This document shows positions 5,876-41,290 of a stretch of DNA of 64,000 nucleotides, piece after piece. The notes beneath the pieces are model-generated. The model saw only the letters and a program-made list of their open reading frames with translations, had not been told where the DNA came from and ran no database searches. Location of the stretch: NCBI GenBank assembly GCA_037442925.1, contig JBBIPG010000002.1, positions 5,176 through 69,175 of the forward strand, given 5' to 3'. This DNA is from Candidatus Fraserbacteria bacterium. GTDB lineage: Bacteria; Bipolaricaulota; Bipolaricaulia; RBG-16-55-9. Made by a program: the position numbers and the translations under genes. How positions within the stretch are numbered: position 1 is the stretch's first letter; each line of letters begins with the position of its first letter.

Positions 5876-8800
5876 CTAGTCTTGCGGCAGCCTATCCAGT
5901 TCTTCCTCGCGATAGATGACCCCCTTCTTCCCCGCTGCCAGGGGCATCTTGCGGATGAGCACGCCGTGGTCCCTCTCCGAAGGGCTGGTCCCCCAGTAGT
6001 TGATGTAATAGCTGAACTGGGCATAGCCGCCGATCATCGTGTGGGGGTTCATCAAGATCCTCGTGGTCGCGTTGTTATTTCCTCCCCTAAGGTCCGAGCG
6101 CTGGCGTTTCTTGGCGAGGGGTGACAAAGGAATATTGACATGGCGCTCCACTTGGTGATAGGTGATGGCCATATTCCGCGGCACTTGATGACTGACCACA
6201 GCCCGCACCACCTCGATGCCGTTCTCGCAATACATCTCCACCCAGTCGTTGTCCTTTACGTCAATCTCTTGCGCATCGTCCGGGTTGAGCCACACGGTGG
6301 GGCCCCCTCGGGACATGTGCATCATGGGCCAGTGGTCGCGGAAGGAGCTGTGGATCTGCCACTTGCCATGGGGCGTGATGAAGCGGAACACTTTCGATTT
6401 GGCCTCAGCTTTTTGCAGATTGATATCTCCGATGGCCACCATGTCCAGCGGAGGTTTGTTGGTGGGCAGCGCCTCACCCAGTTCCCGGATGCCCTGGTGG
6501 TCGTAGTAGATTTCTTGTCTTCCCGAGAGCGTGTGCCACGGTTTCAGCCGCTCCACGTTCATGGTCCACGGCCCGAAGGTCCTTGGCTTGCCGGTCTTGG
6601 GCTCAAACAGAATGGCACTCCACTGTGCGTGGTGTGAATTCGTCTGGGTTTGTGAGATGATGTCTTTGTAGTGCACCCTTCTTTGTTTCACGCTCTCCAC
6701 CATGTCGGCCAGGGGCAGACCCACCTTCTTTTCCATCTCCTTGAAGAAGAGATACGCCAGCCTGCCGTTCAGTTCGGGCGAGATCTGGCAGATGAGTTCG
6801 CAGGCCTGTTCGGGTTTTTCAAAGTAAACCCGGCCGTCTCTTACCGTGAGGACCTCGTTGTTCTTGAGCTCCTCCTCCACGATGGGCGTGAGATCCGTAT
6901 ACTGACCCTTGGCGCCATAGCCTTTGGGCTGGCAGACCAGCGGGCCCAAGGAGACCAGCTTATCGTAGACCTTCGTATAATCCCGTTCCACGATCGCGAT
7001 CTCCGGGAATGTCTTGCCGGGGATGGGCTCTGTGTCGCCTTTGCGCCAGTCTCTCACCTCTCCCAGAGGTTGGGCGAGCTGGTCGGGGCTATCCATCCAC
7101 AGCGCCTTAAACACCACATCCTTTACGGGCTTAGGGAAATGTACTTGCGCCAGTTCCGAGAACTTCCTGGCGATGAGTTTGAATGCTTCCCAGTCGTGCT
7201 TCGTCTCCCAGGGCGGGTCGGTCGCCGGGGTCAGGGGGTGCACAAAGGTGTGCATATCCCCAAAGGTCACGTCGAATTTCTCGTACCAGAAGGCAGCCGG
7301 GAGCACCACATCCGCATAGTTGGCCGAAGAGTCCATCCGGATGTTCAGATTGACCAGAAGGTCCAGTTTGCCGACGGGTGAGGGGTCACGCCAGTTGATT
7401 TCTTTCGCCAGCCCTTTGGCCGGCTCCTCTTCCCACAATACGTTATGGTGTGTGCCGAGGAAGTGTTTTAGGGCGAGCTCATGTCCGCGCATGCTTGTCC
7501 CGATGAGGTTGCCGCGATAGACGGTGAGCACCTTGAGGCGGTTTTCCGCAGCATCAATGTCATGAATGGCAAAATTCAGCTTGCCTTCTTTGAACTGCTT
7601 AAGCACCCATTGCTTGACCTCTTGATCGGTCTTGCATCCTGCCTCGATGGCTTGCTGGTACAACTGCATGGGGTTCTTCTTATCCACCTGCGGGAAGAAG
7701 GGCAGCCATCCTAATCGTACGGCAAGCGCGTTCATGTCGGCCGCGTGGTTGTACTCCGGTAGCTTTTTGGCGCCTACCGCCCACTGGGTGTCCAGGGGCA
7801 TGGGGTCATATCGCCATTGACCAGTATGGAAATACCATAGCGAGGTAGAATTCATGAGTCGCGGCGGCCTTGACCAATCCAGGGCGCCACTCAGATTGAC
7901 AAAAGCGGCATTGAGGCGGGTGTGCTGCGTCCCGACGTAGTGATTGAAGTTGCCGCCGTTCACCCCGTTGCAACCGCACAGGGCAAGCATCACCGCTTCG
8001 TTGCGGTAATACATGGAAGCGCCATGGTACCAATGCTGTATTCCCGGACCGGTGATGAAGAGTGACTTCCCTCTTGTCTTTTCGGCGTTTTCGGCAAATT
8101 CCCTTCCCACCTGGATGGCCAGATTCCGGCTCACGCCCGTCTGTGACTCCTGCCATGCCGGGGTGTAGGGCTTGGGGTCGTCATAGTCCTTCGGATAGTC
8201 GCCTCCCAGTCCTCGTGACACGCCCGCCTGGGCCATGAACAAATCAAAGGCGGTAGTGACGAGCAATTCTTTGCCATCTTTTGTTTTTATTTTTCGAGCG
8301 GGGACCTCGCGCAAAAGCTCCTTTGCTTTTTTCATCTTGCCCTGGCTTTCCCCGAGATAGATGCTGAAGGTCTCGGTGAAATCGCTGAAGGAGACCATCG
8401 CCCGCAGGTCCTCTTTCCCGAGCAGGGTGAGGAGCGGGTCAAACTCTTCCTTCGTGACGGCATTCTTCAGTTGCAGGTTCCAGTTGCCGGTGGGTTCTTT
8501 TTCCCAGCGGAAGCCGATGGAGCCAGTGGGGACATGGAGTTTCCCGTCGGCGTCGGTCATGATCAGTTTCCAGTCAGCGTTTTCTTCACCGGCGTATTCC
8601 GCAAGATCTGACGCCCTGAGGAATCGCCCCATCTGGTATTTCTTGCCATCTTTTTCCAGGATGACGAGGAAGGGCAAGTTGGTGTACTTTTTCACGTACT
8701 CAGTGAAATAGGGCGTTTCCCTGTCGGCATAAAACTCTTTGAGGATGACGTGGATGCAGGCCATGAAGTAGGCGCCATCGCTTCCAGGGACGAGCGGCAC

Positions 8801-10200: not shown

Positions 10201-10306
10201 CTGGATTGACCTCCCGTTTCTCGTTCTTGCGTAGGCTCCCCTCTGCAGGCACAGGGGAATGGAAGCCCGCTGATCGTCTTCAGGAAGTCGCGCAGTTGGT
10301 CGAGAT

Positions 10307-10325
10307 CGTGAAAATATATCTCACG
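10307..10325. promoter_or_regulatory. AT-rich dyad cGTGAaaatatatcTCACg about 110 bp upstream of narC start; candidate Crp/Fnr-family (DnrT-like) operator or -10 region
   Basis: Inverted GTGA/TCAC arms around an AT-rich core in the 336-bp nar promoter region. Spacing (9) does not match canonical CRP (6). Confidence 0.25.
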
Positions 10326-10536
10326 GCCGCTTTGCACGTGCTGGCTGTGCCCGCGCCAGCAGCGCTCTCCCTCCGAGCCACGCTCTAACCAGAAGCGTGC
10401 GACGAATGAGACCGTCTCCCCAGAACTACTTCCCAAAGCCGATCACCTCTAACGAGATGAAGAGACGATGACATATGGCAGTGACAGTCCGGTGACACGG
10501 TACGACAACTGGGAGGCGGGAAGAGGTCAGTTGAGT

Positions 10537-13863: not shown

Positions 13864-14553
13864 GTGGTCGTCTCGGAGCGTTGCAAGTATTGCCTTAACG
13901 AGGCGTGCATCTTCCTCAACGTGAGTCGAGATGAGATATCGTTCCACCCGGAGGACTTCACGCGATCCCTCGAATACCAGCCGGGTCAGACGCTCTTCCC
14001 CGAGGGCGCGCCCCTGTACGGGTACTCGATCATCTGTGAAGGTGCCGTGAAGCTGGTGCGGCGTCTCAAGGAGGGCAGAAGAGTCATCGTCGCAGTGCTG
14101 GGACCAGGCGATATCCTGGGCTTGTCAGCGACTCGTGAAGGGCATTTCGCTTTGGAGGCGGAGGCGTTGGATAGGACGCAGGTGGGTTTCATAGATAAAG
14201 GGGACTTCATCCGGCTTCTTGAGAGATACCCGCGCTTGGCTGCCGCGCTCGTGCAGAAACTATCGGAAGAAGTGTCTCAGCTTCAGGAGCGTCTCTTTGC
14301 GACCGCTCGGCAGAGTGCGAGGGGCAAGTTGGCCTATCTGCTCCTGCAATTGGTTGCCTCCTATGGTCGAAAACATCCGCAGGGAACCCTTATTGATCTG
14401 GAACTCACTCGGTCAGAACTGGCGGAGATGATTGGGGTGGCCCGCGAGACGGTCAGCTTGACTCTCGGTCAGTTGAAGTCCAGAGGGTTAATTGCCCTAG
14501 AAGGCCACAAGATTGTGATCCTCAATGAGATGGGTCTTGAGAACCTTTTCTGA
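13864..14553 (+). CDS. Crp/Fnr-family transcriptional regulator (cNMP-binding-like + C-terminal HTH; N-terminal Cys cluster C-x2-C-x4-C), DnrT/FNR-like
   Basis: GTG start. N-terminus ERCKYCLNEAC. HTH ARETVSLTLGQLKSRGLI with RE residues compatible with GTGA half-site recognition. Confidence 0.75.
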   Translation: MVVSERCKYCLNEACIFLNVSRDEISFHPEDFTRSLEYQPGQTLFPEGAPLYGYSIICEGAVKLVRRLKEGRRVIVAVLGPGDILGLSATREGHFALEAEALDRTQVGFIDKGDFIRLLERYPRLAAALVQKLSEEVSQLQERLFATARQSARGKLAYLLLQLVASYGRKHPQGTLIDLELTRSELAEMIGVARETVSLTLGQLKSRGLIALEGHKIVILNEMGLENLF

Positions 14554-14581
14554 CTGCACCGCGTGGCATAGATCTCAATGG

Positions 14582-14591
14582 TGACCGGTCA
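14582..14591. promoter_or_regulatory. Perfect 10-bp palindrome TGACCGGTCA
   Basis: Seen directly; lies 30 bp after the crp/fnr stop. Confidence 0.3.
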
Positions 14592-14659
14592 TTGATAGCG
14601 AACAGGAAGGTTTGCCATCGCGCTCACGGGCCATTTATGTGAGAAGACCAACGCTATTT

Positions 14660-14675
14660 TGTGAGAATTCTCACA
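14660..14675. promoter_or_regulatory. Perfect 16-bp CRP-consensus palindrome TGTGAGAATTCTCACA (TGTGA-N6-TCACA), with an extra TGTGA half-site 21 bp upstream (14639-14643)
   Basis: Exact inverted repeat seen in sequence, between the Crp/Fnr regulator gene and the first por operon gene (about 80-90 bp upstream of its start). Confidence 0.7.
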
Positions 14676-14720
14676 GCACAACTTCCGCAAAAGAGCTAAT
14701 CTAAGCTGTCGGTAGCCGCT

Positions 14721-14733
14721 AGTGGTTACCACT
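14721..14733. promoter_or_regulatory. 13-bp palindrome AGTGGTtACCACT 20 bp upstream of the ATG at 14753
   Basis: Seen directly; position overlaps the expected promoter/5'UTR. Confidence 0.3.
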
Positions 14734-14752
14734 GAACAGGCAGGTGAACCAC

Positions 14753-16900
14753 ATGGCGAAGGCAGCAGAGCTACAACAGCCTATAGAATCAGAGATTCTC
14801 GCCATTCTAAGAGAAGCCAAGGCCGAAGTCCACACCGAACAGCTCGCCTCACAGCTTGGCATCACACGACACACGGCCGCAAAATATCTGGAGATCCTCC
14901 AGGCCAAGGGGCAAGTCAGCTGTCGCAAACTGGGCAACGCCAAGCTGTGGCGCGAGGCCTCTACCGAGATCGTGATTCGGCTCCTCACTTCCGCAGACCT
15001 AAATGCCATAGTAGCCATCCAAAAGCAACTACAGTCGGAGCCCGAATATGCACAGCTCAAGCTCAGTGACTTCGAGGACGAGGCGGCACTGAACAACTTC
15101 CGGCGGATGGTCGAACATCAGCTGGCGAGCAGCGATCCCGCGTGGATGTTGGGCGCGGAAGTGCAGGGACAACTCGTGGGCTTCATTCTGGGAGAGATTC
15201 GTCTCTGGGAGCGTGGCAGCGGGGAGCAGACGGGCTGGATCCGGGCGCTTGCAGTTGACCCGCGCTATCACGGACGCCACATCGGACGCCGCCTCGCGGA
15301 AGAGCTGCTGGCTCGTTTTCAAGCCCACGGAGTCCGACGTGTGAGAACGCTCATCGACTGGCAAGCCGGAAAACTCATGGCCTACTTCCAAGACCTTGGC
15401 TTCTCCATTTTAAGCATGTTGCCACTCGAAAAGGACTTGCTCGAGTCAGCTAGTGAGCCGAAGAGCATAGAAAACGGAGAGACTGTGAGTTCTCCCATAC
15501 TCGGCGAAGCGAATTTAACAGAAGGAGCAGAGATGAGCGTAAGAACCCCTGCGATCACAGAAGGAGCGTGTAGCACATTCGCAGAACTTCACCCACCATT
15601 GACAGATGGGGAAGCCGTCATGGAAGCCTATCGGTGCCTGGAATGCGGTGGGCCCTATGCTCCGGCTCCCTGCACGGTGGCGTGCCCCACGCACATTGAC
15701 ATCCCCAAGTTCATTCGCGAGATCCGCGAAGGTCGACCGTTGGATTCAGCCCGCACGATCTTTGAGGCAAATGTCTTGGGAGGCAGTTGTGCCCGCGTCT
15801 GTCCCGTGGAAGTCCTCTGCCAAGGGGCCTGCGTTCTGACGAAAGAAGGGCGACGTGCCGTGGAGATCGGTCGGCTGCAACGCTATGCGACCGATTGGGC
15901 TCTCACACGACATGAGCGGGTCATGCCAGCCAAAACGAAGACAAAGCACAACCGCCGAGTGGCCGTTCTCGGTGCAGGGCCAGCAGGGTTGGCTTGCGCA
16001 GCCGAACTGGCTCGCCTTGGTTACTCCGTGACGCTATATGAGAGTAAGACGATGCCGGGCGGACTCATCACTCATGCAATTGCCCCTTATAAGCAGCTGG
16101 TGGAGCCTCTGCCTCACGAGGTAGAGGAGATCCAGAAGCTGGGGGTCGAATTCCGGTTCGGTGTGGCCGTGGGGCGGGATCTCTCGCTTGAGGAGCTCGA
16201 GGGCGTGTACGATGCGATCTTCTTGGGGATCGGCCTCGGCGAAGATCAGTCAGCCGAGGTGCGCGGCGAGGATCTAGAAGGCGTTTACAACTCACTGGAT
16301 TTTGTGGATGAACTCAAGTTGGGCGACTGGCGCAAGCTTAAGCAGCGCTTGGGAGAGAGGATAGCAGTGCTTGGCGGTGGCAATACAGCGATTGACGTGG
16401 CTCGTGAGGCGGTGCGCCTGGGAGCCAAAGAAGTGACCGTGCTCTATCGGCGCACCGAAAAGGACATGCCGGCATACGCCCATGAATACGAGGCAGCACG
16501 CAAGGAAGGTGTGCGGTTCTTGTGGCTGACGGCTCCCAGACGCTTCGTCGGCAACGGAAGAATCCGGGCTGTCGAGTGTGTGCACTTGCGCATGGTCCAG
16601 CCGGAAGCCGGTCGCAGCTCGCCTCTGGAGCCTGTGGCGGGAACGGAGTTTCTCCTCGAAGTCGATGGTGTCATTAAAGCGATCGGCCAGCGGAAGCGTA
16701 CGGCCTTTCTGCAGCAGATTCGCGGCTTACAGCTCGAGCGCGGGCTTGTCAAGGTCGACGAGTGGGGCCAGACGGCTGGAAAATACTTTGCCGGCGGAGA
16801 TTGCGTCAATGGCGGCGACACGGCCGTGCGTGCGGTAGCCGAAGGCCGACGAGCCGCTCAAGGCATTCATCGCTTCCTAAGTGGGGAGGCCATGTCATGA
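14753..16900 (+). CDS. Tri-domain fusion: winged-helix HTH + GNAT N-acetyltransferase + glutamate-synthase-small-subunit-like (GltD/SudA/NfnB-type) NAD(P)H oxidoreductase with Fe-S and FAD/NAD folds
   Basis: HTH LGITRHTAAKYLEIL. GNAT core ALAVDPRYHGRHIGRRLAEELL. GltD N-terminal Cys motifs CLECG...PCTVACP...CARVCP...C and Rossmann VAVLGAGPAGLACAAELA. ATG 14753 with GGTGA SD (ORF track begins at GTG 14744). Stop overlaps porG start. Confidence 0.75.
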   Translation: MAKAAELQQPIESEILAILREAKAEVHTEQLASQLGITRHTAAKYLEILQAKGQVSCRKLGNAKLWREASTEIVIRLLTSADLNAIVAIQKQLQSEPEYAQLKLSDFEDEAALNNFRRMVEHQLASSDPAWMLGAEVQGQLVGFILGEIRLWERGSGEQTGWIRALAVDPRYHGRHIGRRLAEELLARFQAHGVRRVRTLIDWQAGKLMAYFQDLGFSILSMLPLEKDLLESASEPKSIENGETVSSPILGEANLTEGAEMSVRTPAITEGACSTFAELHPPLTDGEAVMEAYRCLECGGPYAPAPCTVACPTHIDIPKFIREIREGRPLDSARTIFEANVLGGSCARVCPVEVLCQGACVLTKEGRRAVEIGRLQRYATDWALTRHERVMPAKTKTKHNRRVAVLGAGPAGLACAAELARLGYSVTLYESKTMPGGLITHAIAPYKQLVEPLPHEVEEIQKLGVEFRFGVAVGRDLSLEELEGVYDAIFLGIGLGEDQSAEVRGEDLEGVYNSLDFVDELKLGDWRKLKQRLGERIAVLGGGNTAIDVAREAVRLGAKEVTVLYRRTEKDMPAYAHEYEAARKEGVRFLWLTAPRRFVGNGRIRAVECVHLRMVQPEAGRSSPLEPVAGTEFLLEVDGVIKAIGQRKRTAFLQQIRGLQLERGLVKVDEWGQTAGKYFAGGDCVNGGDTAVRAVAEGRRAAQGIHRFLSGEAMS

Positions 16901-17490
16901 TGATCGAAATCCGTTGGCACGCTCGCGGCGGTCAAGGAGCCATCACGGTTGCGGAGATCCTCGCTGCCGTCGCGCTTTGTCAGGGTCTCTACGTGCAATC
17001 GTTTCCCGAGTACGGACCAGAGCGCAGCGGCGCACCACTTCATGCGTATAATCGCATCTCCGATGAACCCATCAAACTCCATAGTGGCGTCTACGAGCCA
17101 GATATCGTCGTCGTGCTCGACCCGACGCTGCTCCATGCCGAGCCCGTGGCAGAGGGACTCAAAACCGAGGGGCTTCTGCTCGTAAATACGTCAGATGCTG
17201 CAAAAGAGATGGCAAAGCGCACGGGCTTTCGCGGCAGAGTCTTGGCAATTCCCGCCGTTCAACTGGCCGAACAGGCAAAGATCCGCTTCGCCAATGTGCC
17301 CATGTTGGGTGTGCTGTTGAGACTTCTGAACTTCCCGCTCGAAGCGGGACAAGAAGAATTCCAAACTGTCTTTAGCGAAAAGCTCAGTCCTGCTGTGCTC
17401 GAAGCGAATCTGGAGGCTTTGCGCCTCGGGTACGAAGCCGTTTCGCAGGAGAGCGTCGTAGATATGAAACGAGGTGTCATCGCATCATGA
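16897..17490 (+). CDS. porG: 2-oxoacid (pyruvate-type):ferredoxin oxidoreductase gamma subunit
   Basis: MMIEIRWHARGGQGAITVAEILA. ATGA overlap with upstream stop. The ORF-track N-terminal extension (from 16762) is an out-of-context readthrough. Confidence 0.88.
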   Translation: MMIEIRWHARGGQGAITVAEILAAVALCQGLYVQSFPEYGPERSGAPLHAYNRISDEPIKLHSGVYEPDIVVVLDPTLLHAEPVAEGLKTEGLLLVNTSDAAKEMAKRTGFRGRVLAIPAVQLAEQAKIRFANVPMLGVLLRLLNFPLEAGQEEFQTVFSEKLSPAVLEANLEALRLGYEAVSQESVVDMKRGVIAS

Positions 17491-17810
17491 TGGCGAAAGG
17501 AAAACTGAAAGCGTGGCAAGAACTGGAGGTTGGGGCTGTCGTTCTCGAAGGCGGGAGCACCCAAGCCATTCTCACCGGCGGATGGCGCACAGGCAAGAAG
17601 CCCATCGTCGACGCCCAGAAGTGCGTCAACTGCCTGCTCTGCTGGATCCACTGCCCGGAGCCTGCTATCGTCACGGAGAAGGCTCAGATGCGCGGGTACA
17701 ACTACGAACATTGCAAGGGCTGCGGCATTTGCGCCGAAGCCTGTCCTTCCGGTGCGATTTCCATGGTCCCCGAAGAAAGGGTCGTCCCCGAGAGAGGGTG
17801 GATCGAATGA
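17487..17810 (+). CDS. porD: OFOR delta subunit, 2x[4Fe-4S] ferredoxin
   Basis: CVNCLLCWIHCP and CKGCGICAEACP motifs, 107 aa. Confidence 0.88.
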   Translation: MMAKGKLKAWQELEVGAVVLEGGSTQAILTGGWRTGKKPIVDAQKCVNCLLCWIHCPEPAIVTEKAQMRGYNYEHCKGCGICAEACPSGAISMVPEERVVPERGWIE

Positions 17811-19018
17811 CTGTTGCCATGAAGCAGAAGCAATTACTCACAGGTGCTGAGGCAGTGGCTCAAGCGTGGCGCCAGATCGATCCGGATGTCGTGCCCGTCT
17901 ACCCCATCACACCCCAGACGCCGATCATCACGGCCTTCTCCGAGATGGTCGCTGAGGGACTTGCGAGCACAGAGATCATCAATGTGGAGAGTGAGCACTC
18001 GGCGATGAGCGCGGCCGTCGGTGCCGCAGCGGCTGGAGCCCGTGTGGCCACGGCCACAAGCTCGCAAGGGCTGGCTCTCATGCTCGAGATCTGTTACATT
18101 GCTGCATCCCTTCGGCTGCCCATCTTGATGAACGTGGGAGCGCGGGCACTTTCGGGTCCTATCAATATTCACTGCGACCACTCCGATGCCTATATGGCTC
18201 GCGATGCCGGATGGGTGCAGATCTTCACAGAGAATGCCCAGGAGGCTTACGACTACACGCTTATGGCACAGCGTCTCGCGGAACACGACCGCGTACGCCT
18301 GCCGGTGATGGTGATGCTCGATGGGTTCACTACCACACACTCCGCGGATGTGGCTGAGATCTTACCCGACGACCTGGCAAGACAGTTCATCGGCGAGTAT
18401 GAGCCGCCCTTCTCGTTGCTCACGCAGGTCGCGACTGTCGGCCCCTTTGACATGCCGGACTACTACTTCGAGCACAGACGAGCTCAGCAGCATGCCTTAG
18501 AACAGGTGCGTGAGGCCTTCGAGCAGATTCAAAGAATGTTCAAAGAGCAGAGTGAACGTCCGTATGAAGGGCCTTTCGAGGCGTATCAGATGGACGATGC
18601 GCGAACGGCTCTCGTGGTGATGGGTTCAGCCGCAGGCACCGCTAAGGCCGTTGTGGATATGCTGCGCCGCGAAGGTCGGCGTGTTGGTCTCATTAAACTG
18701 TGGCTCTTTCGCCCCTTCCCGCGCGCAGCCATCGCCCGGGTTTTGGGATACGTCGACAGTGTAGCTGTGTTCGATCGGGGCCTAAGCTACGGTAGCTTCG
18801 GCCCGCTGTATCTTGAGGTCACTTCAGCACTCTACAGTCGAGTCTGGGGTGTGGAGAATTCCAGGCGACCCAAACTAGCCAACATCATCTATGGACTGGG
18901 CGGACGGGATTTACGACCCGATCAGATTCGAAAAGCCTTCGATGATCTGGAGGCTGGGCGCTTGCGAGCTGATCAACTCTACTATGCCGGTTTGCGGGAA
19001 GAAGGAGACCAGCGATGA
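17807..19018 (+). CDS. porA: OFOR alpha subunit
   Basis: MTVAMKQKQLLTGAEAVAQAWRQIDPDVVPVYPITPQTPII. ATGA overlap with porD. Confidence 0.88.
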   Translation: MTVAMKQKQLLTGAEAVAQAWRQIDPDVVPVYPITPQTPIITAFSEMVAEGLASTEIINVESEHSAMSAAVGAAAAGARVATATSSQGLALMLEICYIAASLRLPILMNVGARALSGPINIHCDHSDAYMARDAGWVQIFTENAQEAYDYTLMAQRLAEHDRVRLPVMVMLDGFTTTHSADVAEILPDDLARQFIGEYEPPFSLLTQVATVGPFDMPDYYFEHRRAQQHALEQVREAFEQIQRMFKEQSERPYEGPFEAYQMDDARTALVVMGSAAGTAKAVVDMLRREGRRVGLIKLWLFRPFPRAAIARVLGYVDSVAVFDRGLSYGSFGPLYLEVTSALYSRVWGVENSRRPKLANIIYGLGGRDLRPDQIRKAFDDLEAGRLRADQLYYAGLREEGDQR

Positions 19019-20025
19019 TCCACCTCAAAGAACTGGCGCGGCGCGAGGAGAAGACGCAGAAGTTCTTCGGAGGACATGGCCTATGCGCGGGCTGCGGAGC
19101 CCCCATCGTGGTGCGCACCGTGCTCAACGCGATTGACAGGCCCATGGTCGTCATTAACGCTACAGGGTGTCTTGAGGTCGCCACGACGCGCTTCCCCTAC
19201 ACGGCATGGAGTGTCCCATGGATTCACGTGGCTTTCGAGAATGCTGCCGCCGTGGCCAGTGGAATTGAAACGGCTTATCGCGTCTTGCGGCGCAAGGGCA
19301 AGATCTCCCAGGACATGGTGTTTGTGGTCTTTGCTGGCGATGGGGGCACGTATGATATCGGGTTTCAGGCCCTCTCCGGAGCCCTGGAGCGCGGCCATCG
19401 CCTTATCTACATCTGTTACGACAACGAAGCGTACATGAATACGGGTAATCAGCGATCCGGAGCTACACCACGGGGCGCATATACTGCCACCACGCCGATT
19501 GGCAGTCGAGGCTCCGGCAAACCCCAGCGCCGCAAGGACTTGACCGAGATTGTCGTGGCCCACCACATCCCCTATGCTGCCCAGGCATCCATCTCCGACT
19601 GGCAAGATATCGTGATGAAGATCGAGCGAGCCGTGGCCGCGGACGGTCCAAGTTTCCTCAACGTCTTGTCCACGTGCACACGTGGTTGGGGGTTCCCAGC
19701 GGAGAAAGCCGTGAAGATGGCGCATCTTGCGGTCCAGAGCTGTTACTGGCCGCTCTATGAGGTCATTGACGGCGCGTGGCGCCTGAGCTACGAGCCGGAG
19801 CCGCGTACGGCCGAGGAGCGTGCCAAGTGGGGGCGCTACGGGCTCGACATCACGGAATGGCTCAAGCTCCAGGGGCGCTTCGCCCATCTCTTCCAGAAGA
19901 AGCAGGAAGGGATCTTCGTAAGGCCAGAGCACAGGGAACTGATAGCCGAGATTCAGCGTCAGGTCGAGCGCGACTGGGAGAAGCTCCTCGCCAAGTGTGG
20001 CCGCGCCATACCGGTGCTCGCCTGA
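19015..20025 (+). CDS. porB: OFOR beta subunit (TPP-binding)
   Basis: GHGLCAGCGAP and GDGGTYDIGFQALSGALERGH TPP motif. Confidence 0.88.
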   Translation: MIHLKELARREEKTQKFFGGHGLCAGCGAPIVVRTVLNAIDRPMVVINATGCLEVATTRFPYTAWSVPWIHVAFENAAAVASGIETAYRVLRRKGKISQDMVFVVFAGDGGTYDIGFQALSGALERGHRLIYICYDNEAYMNTGNQRSGATPRGAYTATTPIGSRGSGKPQRRKDLTEIVVAHHIPYAAQASISDWQDIVMKIERAVAADGPSFLNVLSTCTRGWGFPAEKAVKMAHLAVQSCYWPLYEVIDGAWRLSYEPEPRTAEERAKWGRYGLDITEWLKLQGRFAHLFQKKQEGIFVRPEHRELIAEIQRQVERDWEKLLAKCGRAIPVLA

Positions 20026-20038
20026 GGGAGAGACGCCT

Positions 20039-20293
20039 ATGGAACGCTTTCATCAAGGGGAGTTTCAGCTGATTCTAGAGCCAACCTTCTGCAAGGGCTG
20101 CAGTCTCTGCGTGAAGAGTTGCCCGACGGGCATTCTCTATTTGAACGGGCAAGGGAAGATCGCAACGCGCTCGGAGGACGTTGCGGAGAAGTGCATCTTT
20201 TGTGGATTATGCGAGGCGCGGTGTCCCGATTTCGCCATCTGGGTCGTGAAACCTGCTCGGGTTGTGCGCAAACAGAAGGCAGGGGTTATCTGA
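20039..20293 (+). CDS. 2x[4Fe-4S] ferredoxin, delta subunit of second OFOR (KorD-like)
   Basis: CKGCSLCVKSCP and CIFCGLCEARCP. ATG at 20039 inside ORF-track 19997 frame. Confidence 0.75.
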   Translation: MERFHQGEFQLILEPTFCKGCSLCVKSCPTGILYLNGQGKIATRSEDVAEKCIFCGLCEARCPDFAIWVVKPARVVRKQKAGVI

Positions 20294-20308
20294 GGCAGTG
20301 AAGGGAAT

Positions 20309-21496
20309 ATGAAGATGGCCGATAGCGGAGCCAACAATAAGAAGAAGCCACGGCTCATCCAAGGCAACGAAGCGTGCGCCTACGGTGCGCTCTACGCGGG
20401 CTGTCGCTTCTATGCGGGTTATCCGATCACGCCCAGCTCCGAGATCATGGAGATCATGTCGAGAGAGCTGCCTAAGATCGGCGGAGTCTTCATCCAGATG
20501 GAAGATGAGATCGCATCGATATCGGCCGTGATTGGAGCTGCTTGGGCGGGAGCTAAGGCGATGGCGGCCACCAGCGGCCCGGGTTTTTCACTCATGCAAG
20601 AAGGCATAGGCTACGCGGCGATCACCGAGACCCCGTGCGTGATTGTGGACTCGCAACGCTGGGGGCCATCGACAGGCCAACCCACAAAAACGGCCCAAGG
20701 CGATGTGATGCAGGCCATCTGGGGCACCCACGGCGATCACCCCGTGATTGTGCTCACGGCCTCGCATGTGCGAGAGGTCTTCGAAATGACCGTTACGGCG
20801 TTCAACTACGCTGAGCAATACCGGGTTCCCGTGATCTTACTGTTGGATGAAGTCCTGTCCCACATGCGGGAGAACGTGTTCATCCCCGAGCCAGGGGAGA
20901 TCGAGATCATCGAGCGGAAACGACCGCCTTCCCTGAGCGACTTCCGGCCGTTCAAAGACCTCAGTTTCTTGCCGTTTGGAGATGGTGCCCGCTTCAACGT
21001 GACGGGAATGGCCCACGATGAGTGGGGTTTCCCTGCACAAGGACCAGAGGCGGAACGCCAGCTACGCCGCATCATCGACAAGATTCACGTCGATGTCGAA
21101 TCCCTCGCGCTCTTTGAAGAACTGCATCTTGATGATGCTGACAGCGTGATCGCAAGCTATGGCATCACAAGTCGCGCGGCCGAGAGCGCCGTCGAGCAGT
21201 TGCGTGCTGAGGGCCTACGAATCGGGTTCTTGAATTTGAAGACGCTTTGGCCATTCCCAGATTTCCTCTTCGAGCGGCTTCCAGCACACATCGAATATAT
21301 TCTAGTCCCGGAGTTGAACCTGGGCCAGCTGGTGCGTGAGGTGCGGCGGGCCGTGCAGGGACAGCGCGGGCAATCTCTTAGAGTCGAACACCTGGGGCGG
21401 GTGGACGGCAGCTTGATCACACCGCAACAGATCATCGAAACCGTTCACGCCTTCCCCGGCTCTAGGGTTTCAACGGGAGGAGCCCCACGATGCTGA
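20309..21496 (+). CDS. Second OFOR alpha subunit (KorA/VorA-like)
   Basis: GNEACAYGALYAGCRFYAGYPITPSSEIME, 395 aa. Confidence 0.85.
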   Translation: MKMADSGANNKKKPRLIQGNEACAYGALYAGCRFYAGYPITPSSEIMEIMSRELPKIGGVFIQMEDEIASISAVIGAAWAGAKAMAATSGPGFSLMQEGIGYAAITETPCVIVDSQRWGPSTGQPTKTAQGDVMQAIWGTHGDHPVIVLTASHVREVFEMTVTAFNYAEQYRVPVILLLDEVLSHMRENVFIPEPGEIEIIERKRPPSLSDFRPFKDLSFLPFGDGARFNVTGMAHDEWGFPAQGPEAERQLRRIIDKIHVDVESLALFEELHLDDADSVIASYGITSRAAESAVEQLRAEGLRIGFLNLKTLWPFPDFLFERLPAHIEYILVPELNLGQLVREVRRAVQGQRGQSLRVEHLGRVDGSLITPQQIIETVHAFPGSRVSTGGAPRC

Positions 21497-22329
21497 AAGA
21501 ACCATATAGAGAGTACCTACGCTCCGATGAGTTGCCAAGCGTCTGGTGTCCGGGCTGCGGCAACGGAGTCATCGTCAAAGCTCTCGTCAACGCTATAGAC
21601 AGTCTGAAGCTGAAGAAAGACGATGTGGTGGTCGTGGGAGGCATCGGGTGTTCGGGACGTACACCGTTCATTTTGGATTTCAATACCATGCATACGACTC
21701 ATGGTCGTGCGCTGGCTTTCGCTACAGGGATCAAGCTCACACGACCGGAACTTAAGGTGATCGTCGCGATGGGCGATGGCGATGCCTCGGCCATCGGCGG
21801 CAATCACTTCATCCACGCCTGTCGCCGCAACATTGATCTCACAGCCCTCATCTTTAACAACGCCATCTATGGCCAGACGGGAGGGCAACTGGCCCCCACC
21901 ACACCCCAAGGCAAACGAAGCGCAACCTCACAATGGGGGAGCATCGAGCCGAACTTTGATCTATGTCAGCTGGCGCTGGGTGCCGGAGCCGGTTTTGTGG
22001 CACGCACGACGGTCTTCGACTTTCAAGAACTGAAGGGATTTCTCGAAAGGGCTCTCTGGCACAAGGGGTTTTCGGTGGTGGAGATCATGACTTCGTGTCC
22101 AACCTACTTTGGCCGGATGAACGACATCCGCGAACCCTACGAGATGCTGCACTATCTCAAAGACTTGACGATTCCCCAAGATGCGGCCGCCATGGAAGAG
22201 GAACGAGAACGGATGAGAAGGCTTCCGACGGGGGTTTTCAAGGACGAAGAACGAACGGAGTACACGCAGCTCTATCGAGAACTCTGTGAGACGGCCAAGG
22301 CGGCCACAGACGGTTCCCGTGGAGAATGA
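21490..22329 (+). CDS. Second OFOR beta subunit (TPP-binding, KorB-like)
   Basis: WCPGCGNG and GDGDASAIGGNHFIHACRRN. Confidence 0.85.
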   Translation: MLKEPYREYLRSDELPSVWCPGCGNGVIVKALVNAIDSLKLKKDDVVVVGGIGCSGRTPFILDFNTMHTTHGRALAFATGIKLTRPELKVIVAMGDGDASAIGGNHFIHACRRNIDLTALIFNNAIYGQTGGQLAPTTPQGKRSATSQWGSIEPNFDLCQLALGAGAGFVARTTVFDFQELKGFLERALWHKGFSVVEIMTSCPTYFGRMNDIREPYEMLHYLKDLTIPQDAAAMEEERERMRRLPTGVFKDEERTEYTQLYRELCETAKAATDGSRGE

Positions 22330-22919
22330 ACAGCAAGAGAAGCCGTAGAGGCAGAAAGAGCAAAGATCCTGTGCAGATTCGTCTGAGCGGCTCAGGCGGC
22401 CAAGGCTTGATCACAGCCGGTGTCATCTTGGCGGAAGCCGCGTTACTCGATGGCAAGAACGTCGTGCAGACGCAAAGCTATGGCCCTGAGGCGCGGCTGG
22501 GCGCGAGCAAATCCGAAGTGATCATCTCCAAAGGGAAGATTGCCTATCCCCAAGTCATGAATCCAGACATCCTTCTTTGCTTATCGCAAGACTCCTTCGA
22601 CAAGTACATCTCGCAGACCAACGCGGAGGCCATGATCATTGTGGATTCTGACTTTGTGGAGCATGGGTCATCCACGAACAAGCGGATCTATGCACTTCCG
22701 ATCACCAAGACAGCTACCGCCGTCGGCAGCAAGGTGGTGGCGAACGTTGTCGCCTTGGGAGTGATGAATGCTCTGGCAGGCTTGGTTGCTTCCACGAGTT
22801 TGCACGAAGCGGTAGTCAAGCGCGTGCCAGAGCGATTCCGTGCACTCAATGAGCGAGCGGTAGAAGCCGGTGAGAAGCTCATCGAAGAATCTCCGGATTC
22901 CGAAAGGAGGGCCATATGA
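22326..22919 (+). CDS. Second OFOR gamma subunit (KorC/G-like)
   Basis: IRLSGSGGQGLITAGVILAEAA. Confidence 0.82.
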   Translation: MNSKRSRRGRKSKDPVQIRLSGSGGQGLITAGVILAEAALLDGKNVVQTQSYGPEARLGASKSEVIISKGKIAYPQVMNPDILLCLSQDSFDKYISQTNAEAMIIVDSDFVEHGSSTNKRIYALPITKTATAVGSKVVANVVALGVMNALAGLVASTSLHEAVVKRVPERFRALNERAVEAGEKLIEESPDSERRAI

Positions 22920-36823: not shown

Positions 36824-37714
36824 CTACATATGGTCCCGGCACTTGGCGAGTAATCTCTCCCATTCTGTGTCCACGATCTTCTGGATACGCTCGGTGTCCT
36901 CTTCACGGAGATGGCTGAAGCGTCCCTGCTGCGTGAAGTACTCACGTGCGGGGATTCCATCAGGCATCACGCTGATTGTGTAATGGGTGCCTTCCTCGAT
37001 TTCATAGAGAGGGAAGACTTTCGTCTGCACGGCGAGCCGGGCGAGCTTTACCGAAAGCTCGGAAGAGATCTTCCAGCCGGGTGGACAAGGCGATAGCAGA
37101 TGGATGAACTTCATTCCGCGAATGCTCTTGGCCTTTTCGATCTTGCGTACCAGATCATCGGGATAGGCAATCGACGCCGTCGCGGCATAGGGAATCCTGT
37201 GCGCGGCCATAATCCCCATCATGTCCTTCTTGGGTTCGCCCTTGGGAGATAGTTTTGGAGTGGTCGTGGTCCACGCAAGATAAGGCGTTGCAGAGCTTCG
37301 TTGAATCCCGGTGTTCATATACGCTTCATTGTCATAGCAGACATAGAGGATGTTTTCGTTGCGTTCAGCAGCACCGGAGAGGGATTGCAGCCCGATATCA
37401 AACGTCCCGCCATCGCCGGCCCAAGCCAGCACTGTCGTTTCGGTATCCCCTTGCACGTCCAAGGCGGCTCGCACACCCGAAGCAGCTACAGCTGCTGTCT
37501 CGAAAGCCGTATGCAACAGCGGCACCTTAAGCGATGAGTACGGGAAAGGCCCGGCAATGATCGTCCAGCAACAAGCGGGCAGCACGACAATCGTCTTGGG
37601 GCCGAGAGCCTTGAGCACATAGCGCATGCCCAGCGTCGCCCCGCACCCCTGGCAACCCAGATGCCCCGAACCCATCAACTCCACTTCGGGCACAGTAAAA
37701 TTCACGTGGCTCAT
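36824..37714 (-). CDS. Third OFOR, beta subunit (TPP-binding)
   Basis: GCQGCGA and GDGGTFDIGLQSLSGAAERNE. Start MSHVNF at 37714 gives ATGA overlap with alpha stop (ORF track starts at 37732). Confidence 0.82.
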   Translation of the reverse strand: MSHVNFTVPEVELMGSGHLGCQGCGATLGMRYVLKALGPKTIVVLPACCWTIIAGPFPYSSLKVPLLHTAFETAAVAASGVRAALDVQGDTETTVLAWAGDGGTFDIGLQSLSGAAERNENILYVCYDNEAYMNTGIQRSSATPYLAWTTTTPKLSPKGEPKKDMMGIMAAHRIPYAATASIAYPDDLVRKIEKAKSIRGMKFIHLLSPCPPGWKISSELSVKLARLAVQTKVFPLYEIEEGTHYTISVMPDGIPAREYFTQQGRFSHLREEDTERIQKIVDTEWERLLAKCRDHM

Positions 37715-40562: not shown

Positions 40563-40567
40563 TGTCT

Positions 40568-41152: not shown

Positions 41153-41198
41153 CCTGCACTCCCTTTCGGCCAATTGCGTTCGTTTCATCGTATCCGTG

Positions 41199-41237
41199 CC
41201 TAGCATGGAAAAACCATGATCTAGGCTAGCCCCATGG
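41199..41237. promoter_or_regulatory. Cluster of CTAG/CATGG inverted repeats (CCTAGCATGG-aaaaa-CCATGatCTAGG ... CCATGG) in the divergent promoter between OFOR3/hyp genes and the cooC-acs operon
   Basis: Seen directly in the 138-bp divergent intergenic region. Confidence 0.35.
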
Positions 41238-41290
41238 ATGATCTTCGTCATTTTACATCGCTATACGCAACACATACAATACAGACACGT

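Follow-up and report, generated by a model that had tools for sequence, protein, structure and literature searches.

A predicted class II promoter with a conserved Crp/Fnr-type dyad upstream of a 2-oxoacid:ferredoxin oxidoreductase operon in Candidatus Fraserbacteria

Introduction

Next to nothing is known of how genes are regulated in the uncultured Fraserbacteria and Bipolaricaulota (Acetothermia), and a full-text literature search with the term "Fraserbacteria" returned few papers; the term stood in neither the title nor the abstract of any of them. A sequence-only reading of a 64-kb stretch of DNA from a Candidatus Fraserbacteria bacterium (contig JBBIPG010000002.1; hereafter the window) had pointed to a flawless CRP-consensus dyad, TGTGAGAATTCTCACA, between a Crp/Fnr-family gene and an operon encoding 2-oxoacid:ferredoxin oxidoreductases (OFORs). 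The question raised by this locus is whether the dyad is a genuine operator and, if so, which protein reads it and with what effect on the OFOR genes. The comparison with related loci indicates that TGTGAGAATTCTCACA is real and most likely the binding site by which the neighbouring FNR-like regulator switches on the OFOR operon in this uncultured anaerobe.

Organization of the locus

The features of the locus are listed in Table 1. The dyad TGTGA-N6-TCACA was read at 14660-14675, downstream of a gene whose membership in the Crp/Fnr family is confirmed by Pfam, both as described in the sequence-only reading. The spacer between the regulator gene and the following gene comprises 199 bp (14554-14752). 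The start of the latter gene is ATG 14753 and not GTG 14744, according to the gene call and the conserved N-terminus MAKA. The description of the downstream genes as wHTH-GNAT-GltD/por also agrees with the Pfam and NCBIfam matches, which reveal an HTH_11-GNAT-GltD fusion followed by OFOR subunits. The full three-domain form of this fusion was detected in only 4 protein clusters. The genes of the first OFOR abut or overlap each other, and a second OFOR follows. In the loci of Fraserbacteria and Bipolaricaulota, the regulator gene is followed either by an HTH-(GNAT)-GltD gene and an OFOR or directly by a ferredoxin gene and an OFOR; OFOR 2 is located directly after the HTH-GltD gene in L003, L005 and L006. 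The OFOR genes adjoin a Wood-Ljungdahl cluster, and a nitrate reductase cluster is found near the locus in the window.

Table 1. Features of the regulator-OFOR locus (positions in the window).
Feature	Position	Strand	Basis or remark
Crp/Fnr-family regulator gene, 229 aa	13864..14553	+	Pfam cNMP_binding and HTH_Crp_2
Palindrome TGACCGGTCA	14582..14591	.	Not conserved; 10-bp palindromes at chance frequency
Site 2, GTGAGAAnnCCAAC (GTGAGAAGACCAAC)	14639..14652	+	A5 columns 19-32, mean pairwise identity 0.80
Site 1, GTGAGnAtTCTCAC (GTGAGAATTCTCAC)	14661..14674	.	A5 columns 41-54, mean pairwise identity 0.74
-10 box TAATCT	14697..14702	+	TAnnnT in all loci; T77, A78 and T82 invariant in A5
Predicted transcription start	14709	+	7 nt after the -10 hexamer; geometry only
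Element O3, GGTAGCCGCTAGTGGTTACC	14711..14730	+	+3 to +22; consensus GGTrAyC-N6-GGTkAyC
Shine-Dalgarno-like AGGTGA	14742..14747	+	5 nt before ATG 14753; same position in orthologues
wHTH (HTH_11)-GNAT-GltD-like NAD(P)H oxidoreductase fusion, 715 aa	14753..16900	+	Pfam, NCBIfam, L001 gene call
OFOR 1, pyruvate/2-ketoisovalerate type	16897..20025	+	NCBIfam PorC/PorD/PorA/PorB-type matches
OFOR 1 subunits	gamma 16897-17490, delta 17487-17810, alpha 17807-19018, beta 19015-20025	+
OFOR 2, 2-oxoglutarate/2-oxoacid type	20039..22919	+	NCBIfam NF006412 528 bits (cut-off 411); OorD- and KorB-like matches
OFOR 2 subunits	ferredoxin 20039-20293, alpha 20309-21496, beta 21490-22329, gamma 22326-22919	+

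Frequency of the palindromes in the window

Three other motifs of the spacer were found by reading the sequence: TGTGAGAA at 14638-14645, TGACCGGTCA at 14582-14591 and AGTGGTTACCACT at 14721-14733. A repeat search detected in addition the direct repeat TTaTGTGAGAA / TTTTGTGAGAA with a spacing of 22 bp. The dyad is the sole exact match to TGTGA-N6-TCACA in the whole window (1 observed versus 0.09 expected), and at least one exact match was obtained in 7 of 100 first-order Markov simulations of the window. When up to two mismatches are allowed, 30 matches are observed versus 24.8 expected, which corresponds to chance. Perfect palindromes of 16 bp are represented by 2 sequences versus 1.4 expected, so that palindromy alone is not special; the other one is GC-rich and lies within hypF at 35544. 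Palindromes of 10 bp (58 observed versus 72 expected) and of the 6+1+6 type (14 observed versus 19 expected) are at background frequency in the window, and TGACCGGTCA and AGTGGTtACCACT are therefore statistically unremarkable. The earlier statement that such sites are rare by chance thus applies to the exact dyad but not to the other two palindromes.

The palindrome TGACCGGTCA is located in an 84-bp stretch that only the window and its two closest relatives, L159 and L166, contain; in these two relatives the palindrome is broken and reads TGACCGGTCG and TGACCGGACG. It had been noted as a further palindrome of the spacer, and it is probably without function. The RNA fold of the region 14545-14640 is not better than that of shuffled sequences (z = +0.97), and no terminator was found there.

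A predicted promoter module conserved in related loci

The window was compared with a set of 12 related loci from Fraserbacteria and Bipolaricaulota, whose regulators are 50-93% identical. A module of 87 bp aligns across the 12 loci without any gap (alignment A5, 87 columns, no indel). It is composed, in this order, of site 2, a spacer of 8 nt, site 1, a spacer of 22 nt and a -10 box. Site 1 is the core of the perfect 16-bp palindrome. The mean pairwise identity is 0.66 in the -10 box and only 0.32-0.38 in the 5' flank and the two spacers (12 loci). The related locus L171 has the OFOR operon with no regulator gene upstream; site 2 is the exact point at which this locus becomes homologous to the window, and the whole module is kept, including a perfect TGTGAGAATTCTCACA. 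L162, which comes from the same sample as L171, has site 2, site 1 and the -10 box after its regulator gene, with a different gene downstream of them. That the perfect dyad is a functionless chance palindrome would fit the palindrome counts given above and the approximately 7% of simulated windows with an exact match. However, the core, the partner site and the distance to the -10 box are conserved while the spacers have diverged to near-random identity, and a perfect copy is kept in the different upstream context of L171. This footprint effectively refutes a chance origin, which we regard as hardly credible. The dyad TGTGAGAATTCTCACA stands above chance, as judged from the alignments, by its conservation in related loci and not by its perfection.

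The sequence conserved across the loci is GTGAG-N4-CTCAC, and any of T, C, G or A is found at the outer T/A positions. It is therefore partly incidental that the site matches the CRP consensus perfectly: the match is flawless in the window, as had been stated, but this perfection is not a property of the family motif. The closest relative, L159 (regulator 93% identical), has the imperfect site TGTGAGAATTCTGACA, whose right arm contains a mismatch (TGAC). Site 1 is degenerate in the most distant loci, L005 and L006 (GTGGACTCGTTCAA, with a matrix score of about 5), and the recognition helix of the regulator is unchanged there. The orthologous regulators of L160/161, L163/164, L168, L169, L088 and L008 have no adjacent site of this type. 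Site 1 of the window has a matrix score of 25.1, to be compared with one match of at least 16 in 1.36 Mb of unrelated loci. In the rest of the window, the matrix derived from the por sites gave only intragenic matches and no other intergenic one; the best of them, TGTGAGAACGCTCATC at 15340, is inside the fusion gene. The scan of the related loci with this matrix revealed nothing convincing outside the promoter itself. With a single site in the window, a regulon is not definable from 64 kb.

Control of the nar genes by the same regulator had also been suggested, via a degenerate dyad at 10307-10325. This dyad is CGTGA-N9-TCACG, 3 bp wider than the N6 spacing, and it is missed by the por-site matrix. 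Due to this N9 spacing the link to nar is unsupported. The conservation of the nar dyad is uninformative, since only four loci contain this 336-bp region and it is 87% identical among them over its whole length.

Site 2 is asymmetric and of the Crp/Fnr type, with the GT-N10-AC core kept and a centre at about -63.5. The upstream TGTGA motif, first taken as an additional half-site, is indeed present, but it is not a mere half-site, being part of the conserved site 2 (GTGAGAAnnCCAAC) 22 bp upstream of the dyad. The CAAC of site 2 is invariant in the 12 loci. As this is a stronger conservation than a degenerate half-site needs, another factor may read site 2.

The distance from the core of site 1 to TAnnnT is exactly 22 nt in 12 of 12 loci, which places the centre of site 1 at -41.5 in all of them, relative to a start predicted from the conserved -10 box. 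No -35 hexamer was found, and a sigma-70 scan of the + strand upstream of the gene detected no -35/-10 pair. A centre at -41.5 from the predicted start (about 14709) is the position of a class II Crp/Fnr activator, and site 1 is predicted to be the main operator of the adjacent regulator. The sequence-only reading had left the choice between a class I and a class II position; an activator position is maintained here and is narrowed to class II by the predicted distance to the conserved -10 box. The predicted promoter is of an ordinary bacterial kind, a standard one of class II, found here in a lineage that has been little studied.

The same position could be occupied with the opposite effect, the adjacent Crp/Fnr-family protein binding the dyad as a repressor that occludes the -35 region, with de-repression when the sensor is inactivated. 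The dyad overlaps the -35 region right after the regulator gene, as in the repression model proposed for Desulfovibrio HcpR2, whose target is just downstream of its own gene (PMC5701242). The tandem sites could cooperate in repression, and basal read-through from the regulator gene is possible, as no terminator-like site occurs in the spacer and its fold is not better than that of shuffles. Against this, no -35 hexamer that could serve an activator-independent promoter is recognisable, and the exact 22 nt to the -10 box in 12/12 loci are a hallmark of class II activation and not of simple occlusion. We consider repression by this protein unlikely.

Rex, a repressor that senses NADH/NAD+, is a common regulator of fermentation and of ferredoxin- or NAD(P)H-linked enzymes in anaerobes. 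The dyad could be a Rex operator, the Crp/Fnr gene being a bystander, and the operon does encode NAD(P)H- and ferredoxin-linked redox enzymes. The sequence TTGTGAGAATTCTCACAG matches 15 of the 18 positions of TTGTGAAW4TTCACAA, including the W4 centre (consensus from PMC2883068), and Rex and a CRP-family protein have been reported on identical TGTGA-N6-TCACA sites in Desulfovibrio (PMC5701242). However, the consensus A7 and T12 are replaced by conserved G and C, the outer TT/AA vary, and some of the loci have a centre that is not rich in A/T (AACC, GGTT). The sites moreover stay beside the Crp/Fnr gene in L162 despite the different downstream gene, and there is no -35 box to repress. No Rex domain was detected by Pfam in the ORFs of the window (nearly all non-nested ORFs of at least 150 aa, for 64 kb of the genome). 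Control by Rex appears quite improbable.

The regulator encoded upstream

The regulator matches PF00027 (1.3e-16), PF13545 (1.8e-18) and PF00325, all above the gathering scores. Its architecture comprises an N-terminal cNMP-binding-like beta-roll followed by a C-terminal Crp-type helix-turn-helix. Sixty-seven relatives from the Crp/Fnr family were detected in the PDB, the best being GlxR and the CRP of Mycobacterium tuberculosis (Mtb), both of which bind TGTGA-type sites. In NCBIfam the highest-ranking models are FnrL, FixK and Fnr, none of which reaches its cut-off. The orthologue group forms a narrow clade, with one representative at 397 bits and the next match at 213 bits.

The alignment of 22 orthologues (A1) shows the cysteines C7-x2-C10-x4-C15 at the N-terminus and an invariant C58. 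In E. coli FNR the ligands of the [4Fe-4S] cluster are C20, C23, C29 and C122 (PMC5398030). C7, C10 and C15 align by BLASTP with C20, C23 and C29 of FNR, the spacing being one residue shorter, and the position of C122 is occupied by Gly108, the invariant C58 being present instead. A cysteine at position 58 and/or at the FNR-C122 position (108) is found in 53 of the 55 related representatives that carry an N-terminal CxxCx(2-9)C motif: 30 at position 58, 19 at the FNR-C122 position and four at both. From this FNR-like set (C7, C10, C15 and C58, the last one replacing C122), an iron-sulfur cluster is most likely. The AlphaFold model has a pLDDT below 50 for residues 1-33 and is thus uninformative on the cysteine region; a PDB search with the N-terminal 68 residues gave only spurious or weak matches.

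The phosphate and ribose of cAMP are contacted by the RS motif (Arg82-Ser83) and Glu72 (PMC10187061). These residues have no equivalents in the regulator: when it is aligned to GlxR by HMMER, Phe95-Ala96 stand opposite the Arg-Thr of RTSSA, and no residue is paired with the Glu of GEL, which lies in a gap. Most relatives carry Tyr, His or Phe at position 95. The identity of a cAMP-responsive CRP was rejected on account of these missing contacts and of the FNR-like cysteines. The proposal that the regulator controls OFOR expression is thus kept, as the dyad is conserved and tied to both the Crp/Fnr gene and the OFOR operon, but this control would not be that of cAMP-CRP.

The recognition helix is R194-E195-T-V-S-L, where R194, E195, T196 and S198 are invariant (A1) and Leu199 replaces the second Arg of the CAP helix (RETVGR). 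CAP uses the R and E of RETVGR to contact the G positions of TGTGA, and the core common to the family is GT-N10-AC (PMC10187061). The FNR box is TTGAT-N4-ATCAA (PMC5398030). With the helix RETVSL and the conserved site GTGAG-N4-CTCAC, the regulator has neither the E--SR helix nor the box of FNR; as the helix keeps the Arg-Glu pair of CRP, a half-site of the GTGA type rather than TTGAT is the fitting one.

A second conserved element downstream of the predicted start

The palindrome AGTGGTtACCACT overlaps by its left part the 3' half of a conserved 20-bp element, O3, located downstream of the predicted start; AGTGGTtACCACT itself is not a conserved unit and is at chance frequency. O3 is present in all 10 OFOR-linked promoters with a complete sequence, and in L002 only its 3' half can be read, after a run of N. 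It is absent from L162, which is without the OFOR operon. No other good copy was found in the window or the related loci, and GGTnAyC units are not enriched (58 observed versus about 68 expected). O3 is a candidate operator for a second regulator, or else a candidate 5'-UTR hairpin.

A more general action of the palindromes as RNA, as a 3'-terminal hairpin of the regulator mRNA or as a structure of the 5' UTR, can be envisaged: the 16-mer could form a hairpin of 6 bp, and a stem of 6-7 bp is kept in 9 of 9 O3 sequences, the only changes being one-sided and wobble-compatible. Against this, the arms of the dyad are invariant and do not covary, no U-tract or terminator was found, and the dyad is upstream of the predicted start. 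In O3 there is no covariation, no pair being changed on both sides, and shuffling the columns leaves the pairing just as good, with 93.7% of the cells paired in the real alignment as well as in 500 of 500 shuffles. No Rfam family was matched up to E = 1. For the predicted 5' UTR the fold is modestly better than that of shuffles (z = -1.74), through non-conserved pairing. We judge a function of the palindromes as RNA very improbable.

Proposed mechanism

Our preferred reading, which we hold to be probable, is that the 199-bp spacer is a class II activator-dependent promoter of a nine-gene OFOR operon on which the FNR-like regulator acts. This operon would consist of the wHTH-GNAT-GltD fusion, the four-subunit OFOR of the POR/VOR type and the four-subunit 2-oxoacid OFOR. 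From the observed sequences, their conservation, the fixed spacing, the gene linkage and the features of the protein, we infer the following steps. A dimer of the regulator would bind GTGAGAATTCTCAC in site 1. At -41.5 the bound dyad would substitute for a -35 box, and the regulator would recruit the RNA polymerase to TAATCT, with transcription starting at the predicted position. A second dimer would probably sit on the asymmetric site 2, two helical turns upstream (-63.5). The regulator, presumably not a cAMP receptor, would most likely carry an iron-sulfur cluster labile to oxygen or NO, so that the oxygen-sensitive OFORs would be switched on only under anoxic or reducing conditions. O3 would provide a second layer of control, most likely as the operator of the strongly conserved wHTH fused to the first enzyme of the operon. 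The regulator orthologues lacking a site, the degenerate site 1 of L005 and L006, the mismatch in L159, the invariant CAAC of site 2, the likeness of the dyad to a Rex operator and the Leu199 of the helix are among the points that count against this reading.

A bolder extension of this model, which we put forward tentatively and with more doubt than belief, is that the regulator represents an undescribed narrow FNR subfamily of Fraserbacteria and Bipolaricaulota, with C58 as fourth ligand and a CRP-like GTGAG-N4-CTCAC specificity, and that the wHTH-GNAT-GltD protein, whose wHTH is nearly invariant and whose GNAT-GltD part would be a subunit of an NAD(P)H-linked OFOR, is a "trigger enzyme" autoregulating its operon via +3 to +22, perhaps by sensing acyl-CoA/CoA with its GNAT domain. 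If true, the pyruvate/2-oxoacid synthases that connect the Wood-Ljungdahl pathway to biosynthesis would be under a dual control by oxygen and metabolites.

The locus offers a concrete, though predicted, pairing of a regulator with a DNA motif, and may represent the first evidence on the appearance of -10 boxes and activator sites in these lineages. It links a probable oxygen or redox sensor to oxygen-sensitive 2-oxoacid:ferredoxin oxidoreductases beside a Wood-Ljungdahl cluster. It also indicates that a textbook "CRP consensus" can belong to an FNR-like protein independent of cAMP, which calls for caution before such sites are annotated as catabolite control.

Comparison with known systems

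The closest parallel in organization is the PN (bzd) promoter of Azoarcus sp. CIB, where the FNR-type activator AcpR binds at -41.5, overlapping the -35 box, and a pathway-specific repressor covers +1 (PMC6678401). The repressor BzdR is an HTH fused to an enzyme-like domain (PMC3602430). Both promoters have a site for the FNR/CRP superfamily at -41.5 in the -35 position (from a predicted start here) and a second, pathway-specific operator over or downstream of +1, for which O3 is the candidate here. In both cases an HTH is joined to an enzyme-like domain, and the target is an oxygen-sensitive, ferredoxin-linked anaerobic pathway. The locus differs from PN by its extra site at -63.5 and by an HTH carried on a GNAT-GltD enzyme that looks active and is itself encoded by the first gene of the operon under control. 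Compared with promoters of the FNR class, the half-site is GTGAG instead of TTGAT and the helix RETVSL instead of the E--SR type. The regulator differs from FNR itself by its fourth cysteine at 58 instead of 122 and by the x2/x4 instead of x2/x5 spacing.

The site of the window is identical to the CAP consensus of E. coli CRP, and the GT-N10-AC core and the R-E pair of the helix are common to both systems. The actinobacterial CRP/GlxR proteins are similar in that GlxR and Mtb CRP are the best-scoring solved structures. In contrast to CRP/CAP, the regulator is without a cAMP pocket, has an N-terminal cysteine motif and has Leu for the second Arg of RETVGR; in the motif, the outer T/A are not conserved whereas G6 and C11 are. 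In Desulfovibrio desulfuricans, HcpR1 binds a perfect TGTGA-N6-TCACA, and HcpR2 is described with NO-sensitive Fe-S clusters and as binding just downstream of its own gene (PMC5701242). Like our regulator, they are members of the CRP/FNR family that do not respond to cAMP, and a nitrate reductase cluster is near the locus in the window. Their targets are hcp and nap instead of OFOR genes, and the orthologue group of the present regulator is confined to its narrow clade. Finally, the Rex operators share with the window a dyad of 18 bp that has TGTGA as its core and A/T at its centre, upstream of redox enzymes. They are distinguished from it by the conserved G/C at 7 and 12, the variable outer bases and the fixed class II distance of the present sites, and by the linkage of these sites to a Crp/Fnr gene and not to rex.

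Genomic context

The DNA comes from an uncultured anaerobe near Candidatus Fraserbacteria, and the best named relative of its Crp/Fnr-family regulator (13864-14553, plus strand, 229 aa), with 81% identity, is from RBG_16_55_9. Nine tightly packed genes follow the regulator in one run. Farther along the window are hyp genes, a CODH/ACS (Wood-Ljungdahl) cluster and a third 2-oxoacid:ferredoxin oxidoreductase (OFOR) that has a GltD-like subunit of its own, a gene content that points to an acetogen-like anaerobe in which oxygen-sensitive OFORs are central. The third OFOR operon (36824-41251, minus strand; gamma, GltD-like-Fer4, alpha, beta) is divergent from the CooC/CODH-ACS cluster, which brings the OFORs of the window to three and its GltD-like NAD(P)H modules to two. 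The acetyl-CoA synthase ORF (ACS/CODH beta, CdhC-type; 43922-47521, 1199 aa) carries intein-splicing and LAGLIDADG homing-endonuclease domains inserted between its catalytic parts.

Features around the regulator gene
Feature	Position	Remark
narK-narK-narIJHG-cytochrome c cluster	upstream of regulator, first in order	minus strand
PAS-BTAD regulator gene	upstream, after nar cluster	
Pseudouridine synthase gene	upstream, after PAS-BTAD regulator	
Aminotransferase gene	upstream	stop 3 nt from regulator start
TGACCGGTCA palindrome	14582-14591	sequence
Further TGTGAGAA	14638-14645	sequence; upstream of dyad
Site 2	14639-14652	first block of 87-column alignment
TGTGAGAATTCTCACA, TGTGA-N6-TCACA dyad	14660-14675	sequence
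Site 1	14661-14674	second block of 87-column alignment
-10 box TAATCT	14697-14702	TAnnnT block of alignment
O3, GGTAGCCGCTAGTGGTTACC	14711-14730	+3 to +22 from predicted start
AGTGGTTACCACT palindrome	14721-14733	sequence
wHTH(HTH_11)-GNAT-GltD-like fusion	operon gene 1	true start ATG 14753
POR/VOR-type OFOR	after fusion gene	gamma, delta, alpha, beta
Small ferredoxin gene	after POR/VOR-type OFOR	
2-oxoacid/2-oxoglutarate-type OFOR	after ferredoxin	alpha, beta, gamma

The regulator protein

Pfam places the regulator in the Crp/Fnr superfamily; its closest solved structures are Corynebacterium GlxR and Mycobacterium CRP, and the top NCBIfam models (FnrL, FixK and Fnr) all score far under their cut-offs. 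The orthologue group is narrow, since the word-indexed search gave 25 protein clusters with 49-93% identity to the regulator and a next best of at most 34%, and the exhaustive profile search across 1.84 billion representatives dropped from 397 bits for the best to 213 bits for the second.

The orthologue alignment reveals the recognition helix R-E-T-V/A-S-L, where R194, E195, T196 and S198 are invariant. The recognition helix of FNR is of the E--SR type and reads TTGAT. This TTGAT is contained in the FNR box (PMC5398030), and CAP uses the R and E of its RETVGR helix to recognise the G positions in TGTGA (PMC10187061). With an R-E helix like that of CAP and unlike that of FNR, the regulator is predicted to recognise a GTGA-type half-site. 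The cAMP contacts are absent in the alignment to GlxR, whose Arg-Thr aligns with Phe95-Ala96 and whose Glu falls in a gap; this missing RS/E pocket rules out a cAMP-CRP.

In the same orthologues C7 and C10 never vary and C15 hardly does. These residues align with C20, C23 and C29 of E. coli FNR and, independently, the NCBIfam Fnr model aligned query residue 6 to profile position 19. The position of FNR C122 is occupied by Gly108, and C58 is invariant. An N-terminal CxxCx(2-9)C was detected in 55 of the best 149 representatives of the wider family, 53 of which have Cys at 58 (30), at 108 (19) or at both (4), a pattern suggesting that the fourth ligand may sit at either of two places. For residues 1-33 the AlphaFold model gives no information. 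With its cysteines (C7/C10/C15, C58) the regulator is probably a sensor that responds to oxygen or NO through an iron-sulfur cluster. The different box and helix, together with a putative fourth Cys ligand located elsewhere, set it apart from canonical FNR. The regulator is best described as a member of a distinct small subfamily, with a putative FNR-like sensor and a predicted CRP-like DNA specificity.

Palindromes of the spacer

The four features that the sequence-only reading had claimed for the spacer are all present. It had considered such perfect sites rare by chance; on statistics alone this is the case for no more than the CRP-like dyad, and mildly. The exact TGTGA-N6-TCACA occurs once in 64 kb, at 14660-14675, for 0.09 expected per window in first-order Markov simulations. 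One mismatch adds a single intragenic match (60862), and with up to two mismatches the 30 matches are at chance level (24.8 expected). Perfect 16-bp palindromes of any sequence number 2 for 1.4 expected (Markov simulations). The other two palindromes are of background classes, with 58 palindromes of 10 bases (72 expected) and 14 of the 6+1+6 type (19 expected).

TGACCGGTCA lies in 14554-14637, a stretch confined to the window and the related loci L159 and L166, and in both relatives the palindrome is disrupted (TGACCGGTCG and TGACCGGACG); in all other loci, 6-30 nt separate the regulator stop codon from site 2. Neither a terminator nor an unusual RNA fold was detected in 14554-14637, and we regard this palindrome as non-functional. 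AGTGGTtACCACT was rejected as a conserved unit, its left part overlapping the 3' half of the conserved 20-bp O3.

A conserved footprint of a probable promoter

Orthologue neighbourhoods were drawn from genomes, metagenomes and exact-protein look-ups. Twelve promoter regions align gap-free across 87 columns with the common layout GTGAGAAnnCCAAC - 8 nt - GTGAGnAtTCTCAC - 22 nt - TAnnnT. Averaged over the pairs of eight non-redundant sequences, identity reaches 0.80 in site 2, 0.74 in site 1 and 0.66 in the -10 box, while the 5' flank and the two spacers are near random (0.32-0.38). This footprint across loci excludes chance as the origin of the dyad. A position matrix built from the sites gives the window site a score of 25.1, and only one match of at least 16 was recovered in 1.36 Mb of unrelated loci. 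The second-best match in the window, TGTGAGAACGCTCATC (15340-15355, score 17.4), is in the part of the fusion gene that encodes GNAT, roughly 590 bp past the start codon.

With a start assumed 7 nt past the -10 hexamer, at about 14709, the centre of site 1 would fall at -41.5 and that of site 2 at -63.5. The sigma-70 consensus scan of the operon strand found no -35/-10 pair, and the expected -35 position (14674-14679) reads CAGCAC, unlike TTGACA. This predicted arrangement is that of a class II promoter dependent on a Crp/Fnr regulator, which narrows the class I or class II positions first proposed. That the regulator binds the dyad as a repressor is unlikely: HcpR2 is modelled so, binding downstream of its own gene (PMC5701242), but activation is favoured by the absence of a -35 box and by the fixed distance of 22 nt to the -10 box.

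The outer T and A of TGTGA...TCACA vary, the first base being T, C, G or A by locus, and the sixth (G) and eleventh (C) positions are conserved. Since, moreover, L159 (regulator 93% identical) has TGTGAGAATTCTGACA in place of the perfect dyad, the flawless CRP match of this strain (and of L171) is partly coincidental. The family motif is GTGAG-N4-CTCAC, which retains the GT-N10-AC core general for the superfamily (PMC10187061).

Three arrangements were found 3' of the regulator gene. HTH-(GNAT)-GltD and OFOR genes follow it in the window, L159, L166, L003, L005 and L006; in L002 and L083 the fusion gene likewise follows, the contigs stopping inside it, before any OFOR gene. L165 has a free-standing HTH-GNAT gene followed by amidohydrolase, enoyl-CoA hydratase and HGD-D-type dehydratase genes, not OFOR. 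In L004 and L167, ferredoxin and OFOR come directly after the regulator. Runs of N interrupt the spacer in L002 (6855-6913) and L160 (4821-4980), the former beginning directly after TTGTGAGAA, a site readable in part only.

Two loci from one sample separate regulator and target. In L171 a fusion-OFOR operon, whose fusion protein is 75% identical, is not preceded by a regulator gene; the locus retains the whole module, with a perfect copy of TGTGAGAATTCTCACA, and begins to resemble the window exactly at site 2. In L162, the regulator gene is followed by site 2, site 1, the -10 box and a small secreted protein gene. The site pair therefore travels with the regulator and with the target, as an operator would. 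A Rex operator is unlikely. The Rex consensus TTGTGAAW4TTCACAA (PMC2883068) is matched by the window site at 15 of 18 positions, and in Desulfovibrio identical sites are reported for Rex and a CRP-family protein (PMC5701242); against this, positions 7 and 12 keep a G and a C, outer bases and centres vary, the L162 sites are linked to a Crp/Fnr gene and no Rex domain was found among the window ORFs scanned. The central idea, control of the OFOR operon by the adjacent regulator through the dyad, is probably right, from the footprint and the linkage in related loci.

Other neighbours of the regulator

More distant or rearranged loci have other redox neighbours (L088 6676-6760; L168 3116-3390; L169 1-3900; L165 5548-8690). 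Superoxide dismutase, identified by eye from translated sequence, adjoins the regulator in L088, and hydrogenase maturation genes (hycI, hypA) and BcrAD_BadFG and HGD-D genes (benzoyl-CoA-reductase / 2-hydroxyacyl-CoA-dehydratase-like) do so in others. These neighbours hint at a wider regulon of anaerobic or redox genes; the listed regions showed no clear operator. L007 (Bipolaricaulia, regulator 49% identical) has CGTGACAAACCTCACC (GTGA-N6-TCAC; 6775-6790) 82 bp past the regulator stop codon, with no recognisable -10 box 22 nt 3' of it and no adjoining OFOR operon.

A link to nar through 10307-10325 was also suggested and is unsupported. This dyad is CGTGA-N9-TCACG, three bp wider than the sites of the OFOR operon and hence a poor fit for a dimer bound as at those sites, and their matrix did not detect it. 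It is invariant in the four loci containing the region, where the entire 336 bp are 87% identical, a conservation not specific to the dyad. This region (10201-10536, separating the cytochrome c/narG operon from the PAS-BTAD gene; regulators 83-93% identical), with its invariant CGTGAAAATATATCTCACG (N9 dyad), is unusually conserved for non-coding DNA and may be a hidden small gene or a dense regulatory region.

The O3 element

O3 has the consensus GGTrAyC-N6-GGTkAyC with a conserved centre CGCTAA. It is readable in all ten OFOR-linked promoters with complete sequence and, for its 3' half only, after the N run of L002. It is absent from L162, and no copy was found elsewhere in the window or the fetched loci; the upstream end of the third OFOR operon has neither O3 nor the GTGAG-N4-CTCAC dyad. 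The palindromes acting as RNA structure finds no support: a potential O3 hairpin of 6-7 bp is kept in nine of nine sequences, but all changes are one-sided, column shuffles pair equally well and O3 has no Rfam match. The location of O3 fits a repressor operator.

Proteins of four architectures (HTH-GNAT-GltD, HTH-GltD, HTH-GltD-Fer4 and HTH-GNAT) share the wHTH found at the N-terminus of the fusion (..TRHTAAKYLEIL.AKG....RK.GNAKLW) with almost no variation. A gene for it is present in every inspectable O3-bearing cluster, including farther downstream on the L004 contig. This co-occurrence, which is not proof, makes the wHTH a candidate binder of O3, and the interest of the locus would grow if the enzyme-fused wHTH were a second, metabolite-responsive regulator there. 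The full-length wHTH(HTH_11)-GNAT-GltD-like NAD(P)H oxidoreductase fusion is rare, with only four clusters (75-100% identical) in a collection of 5.8 billion proteins; its relatives are HTH-GltD, HTH-GltD-Fer4, free-standing HTH-GNAT and plain GltD.

Comparison with known systems

The observation of the dyad is real; the class of promoter and the regulator superfamily are already known. HcpR proteins already combine an FNR-like sensor with CRP-like DNA specificity, as proposed here for the regulator. Functionally, the locus resembles class II promoters of the FNR type, among which the Azoarcus PN promoter is the closest well-studied case; there AcpR is located at -41.5, as predicted for site 1, and the enzyme-derived repressor BzdR lies over +1 (PMC6678401, PMC3602430).
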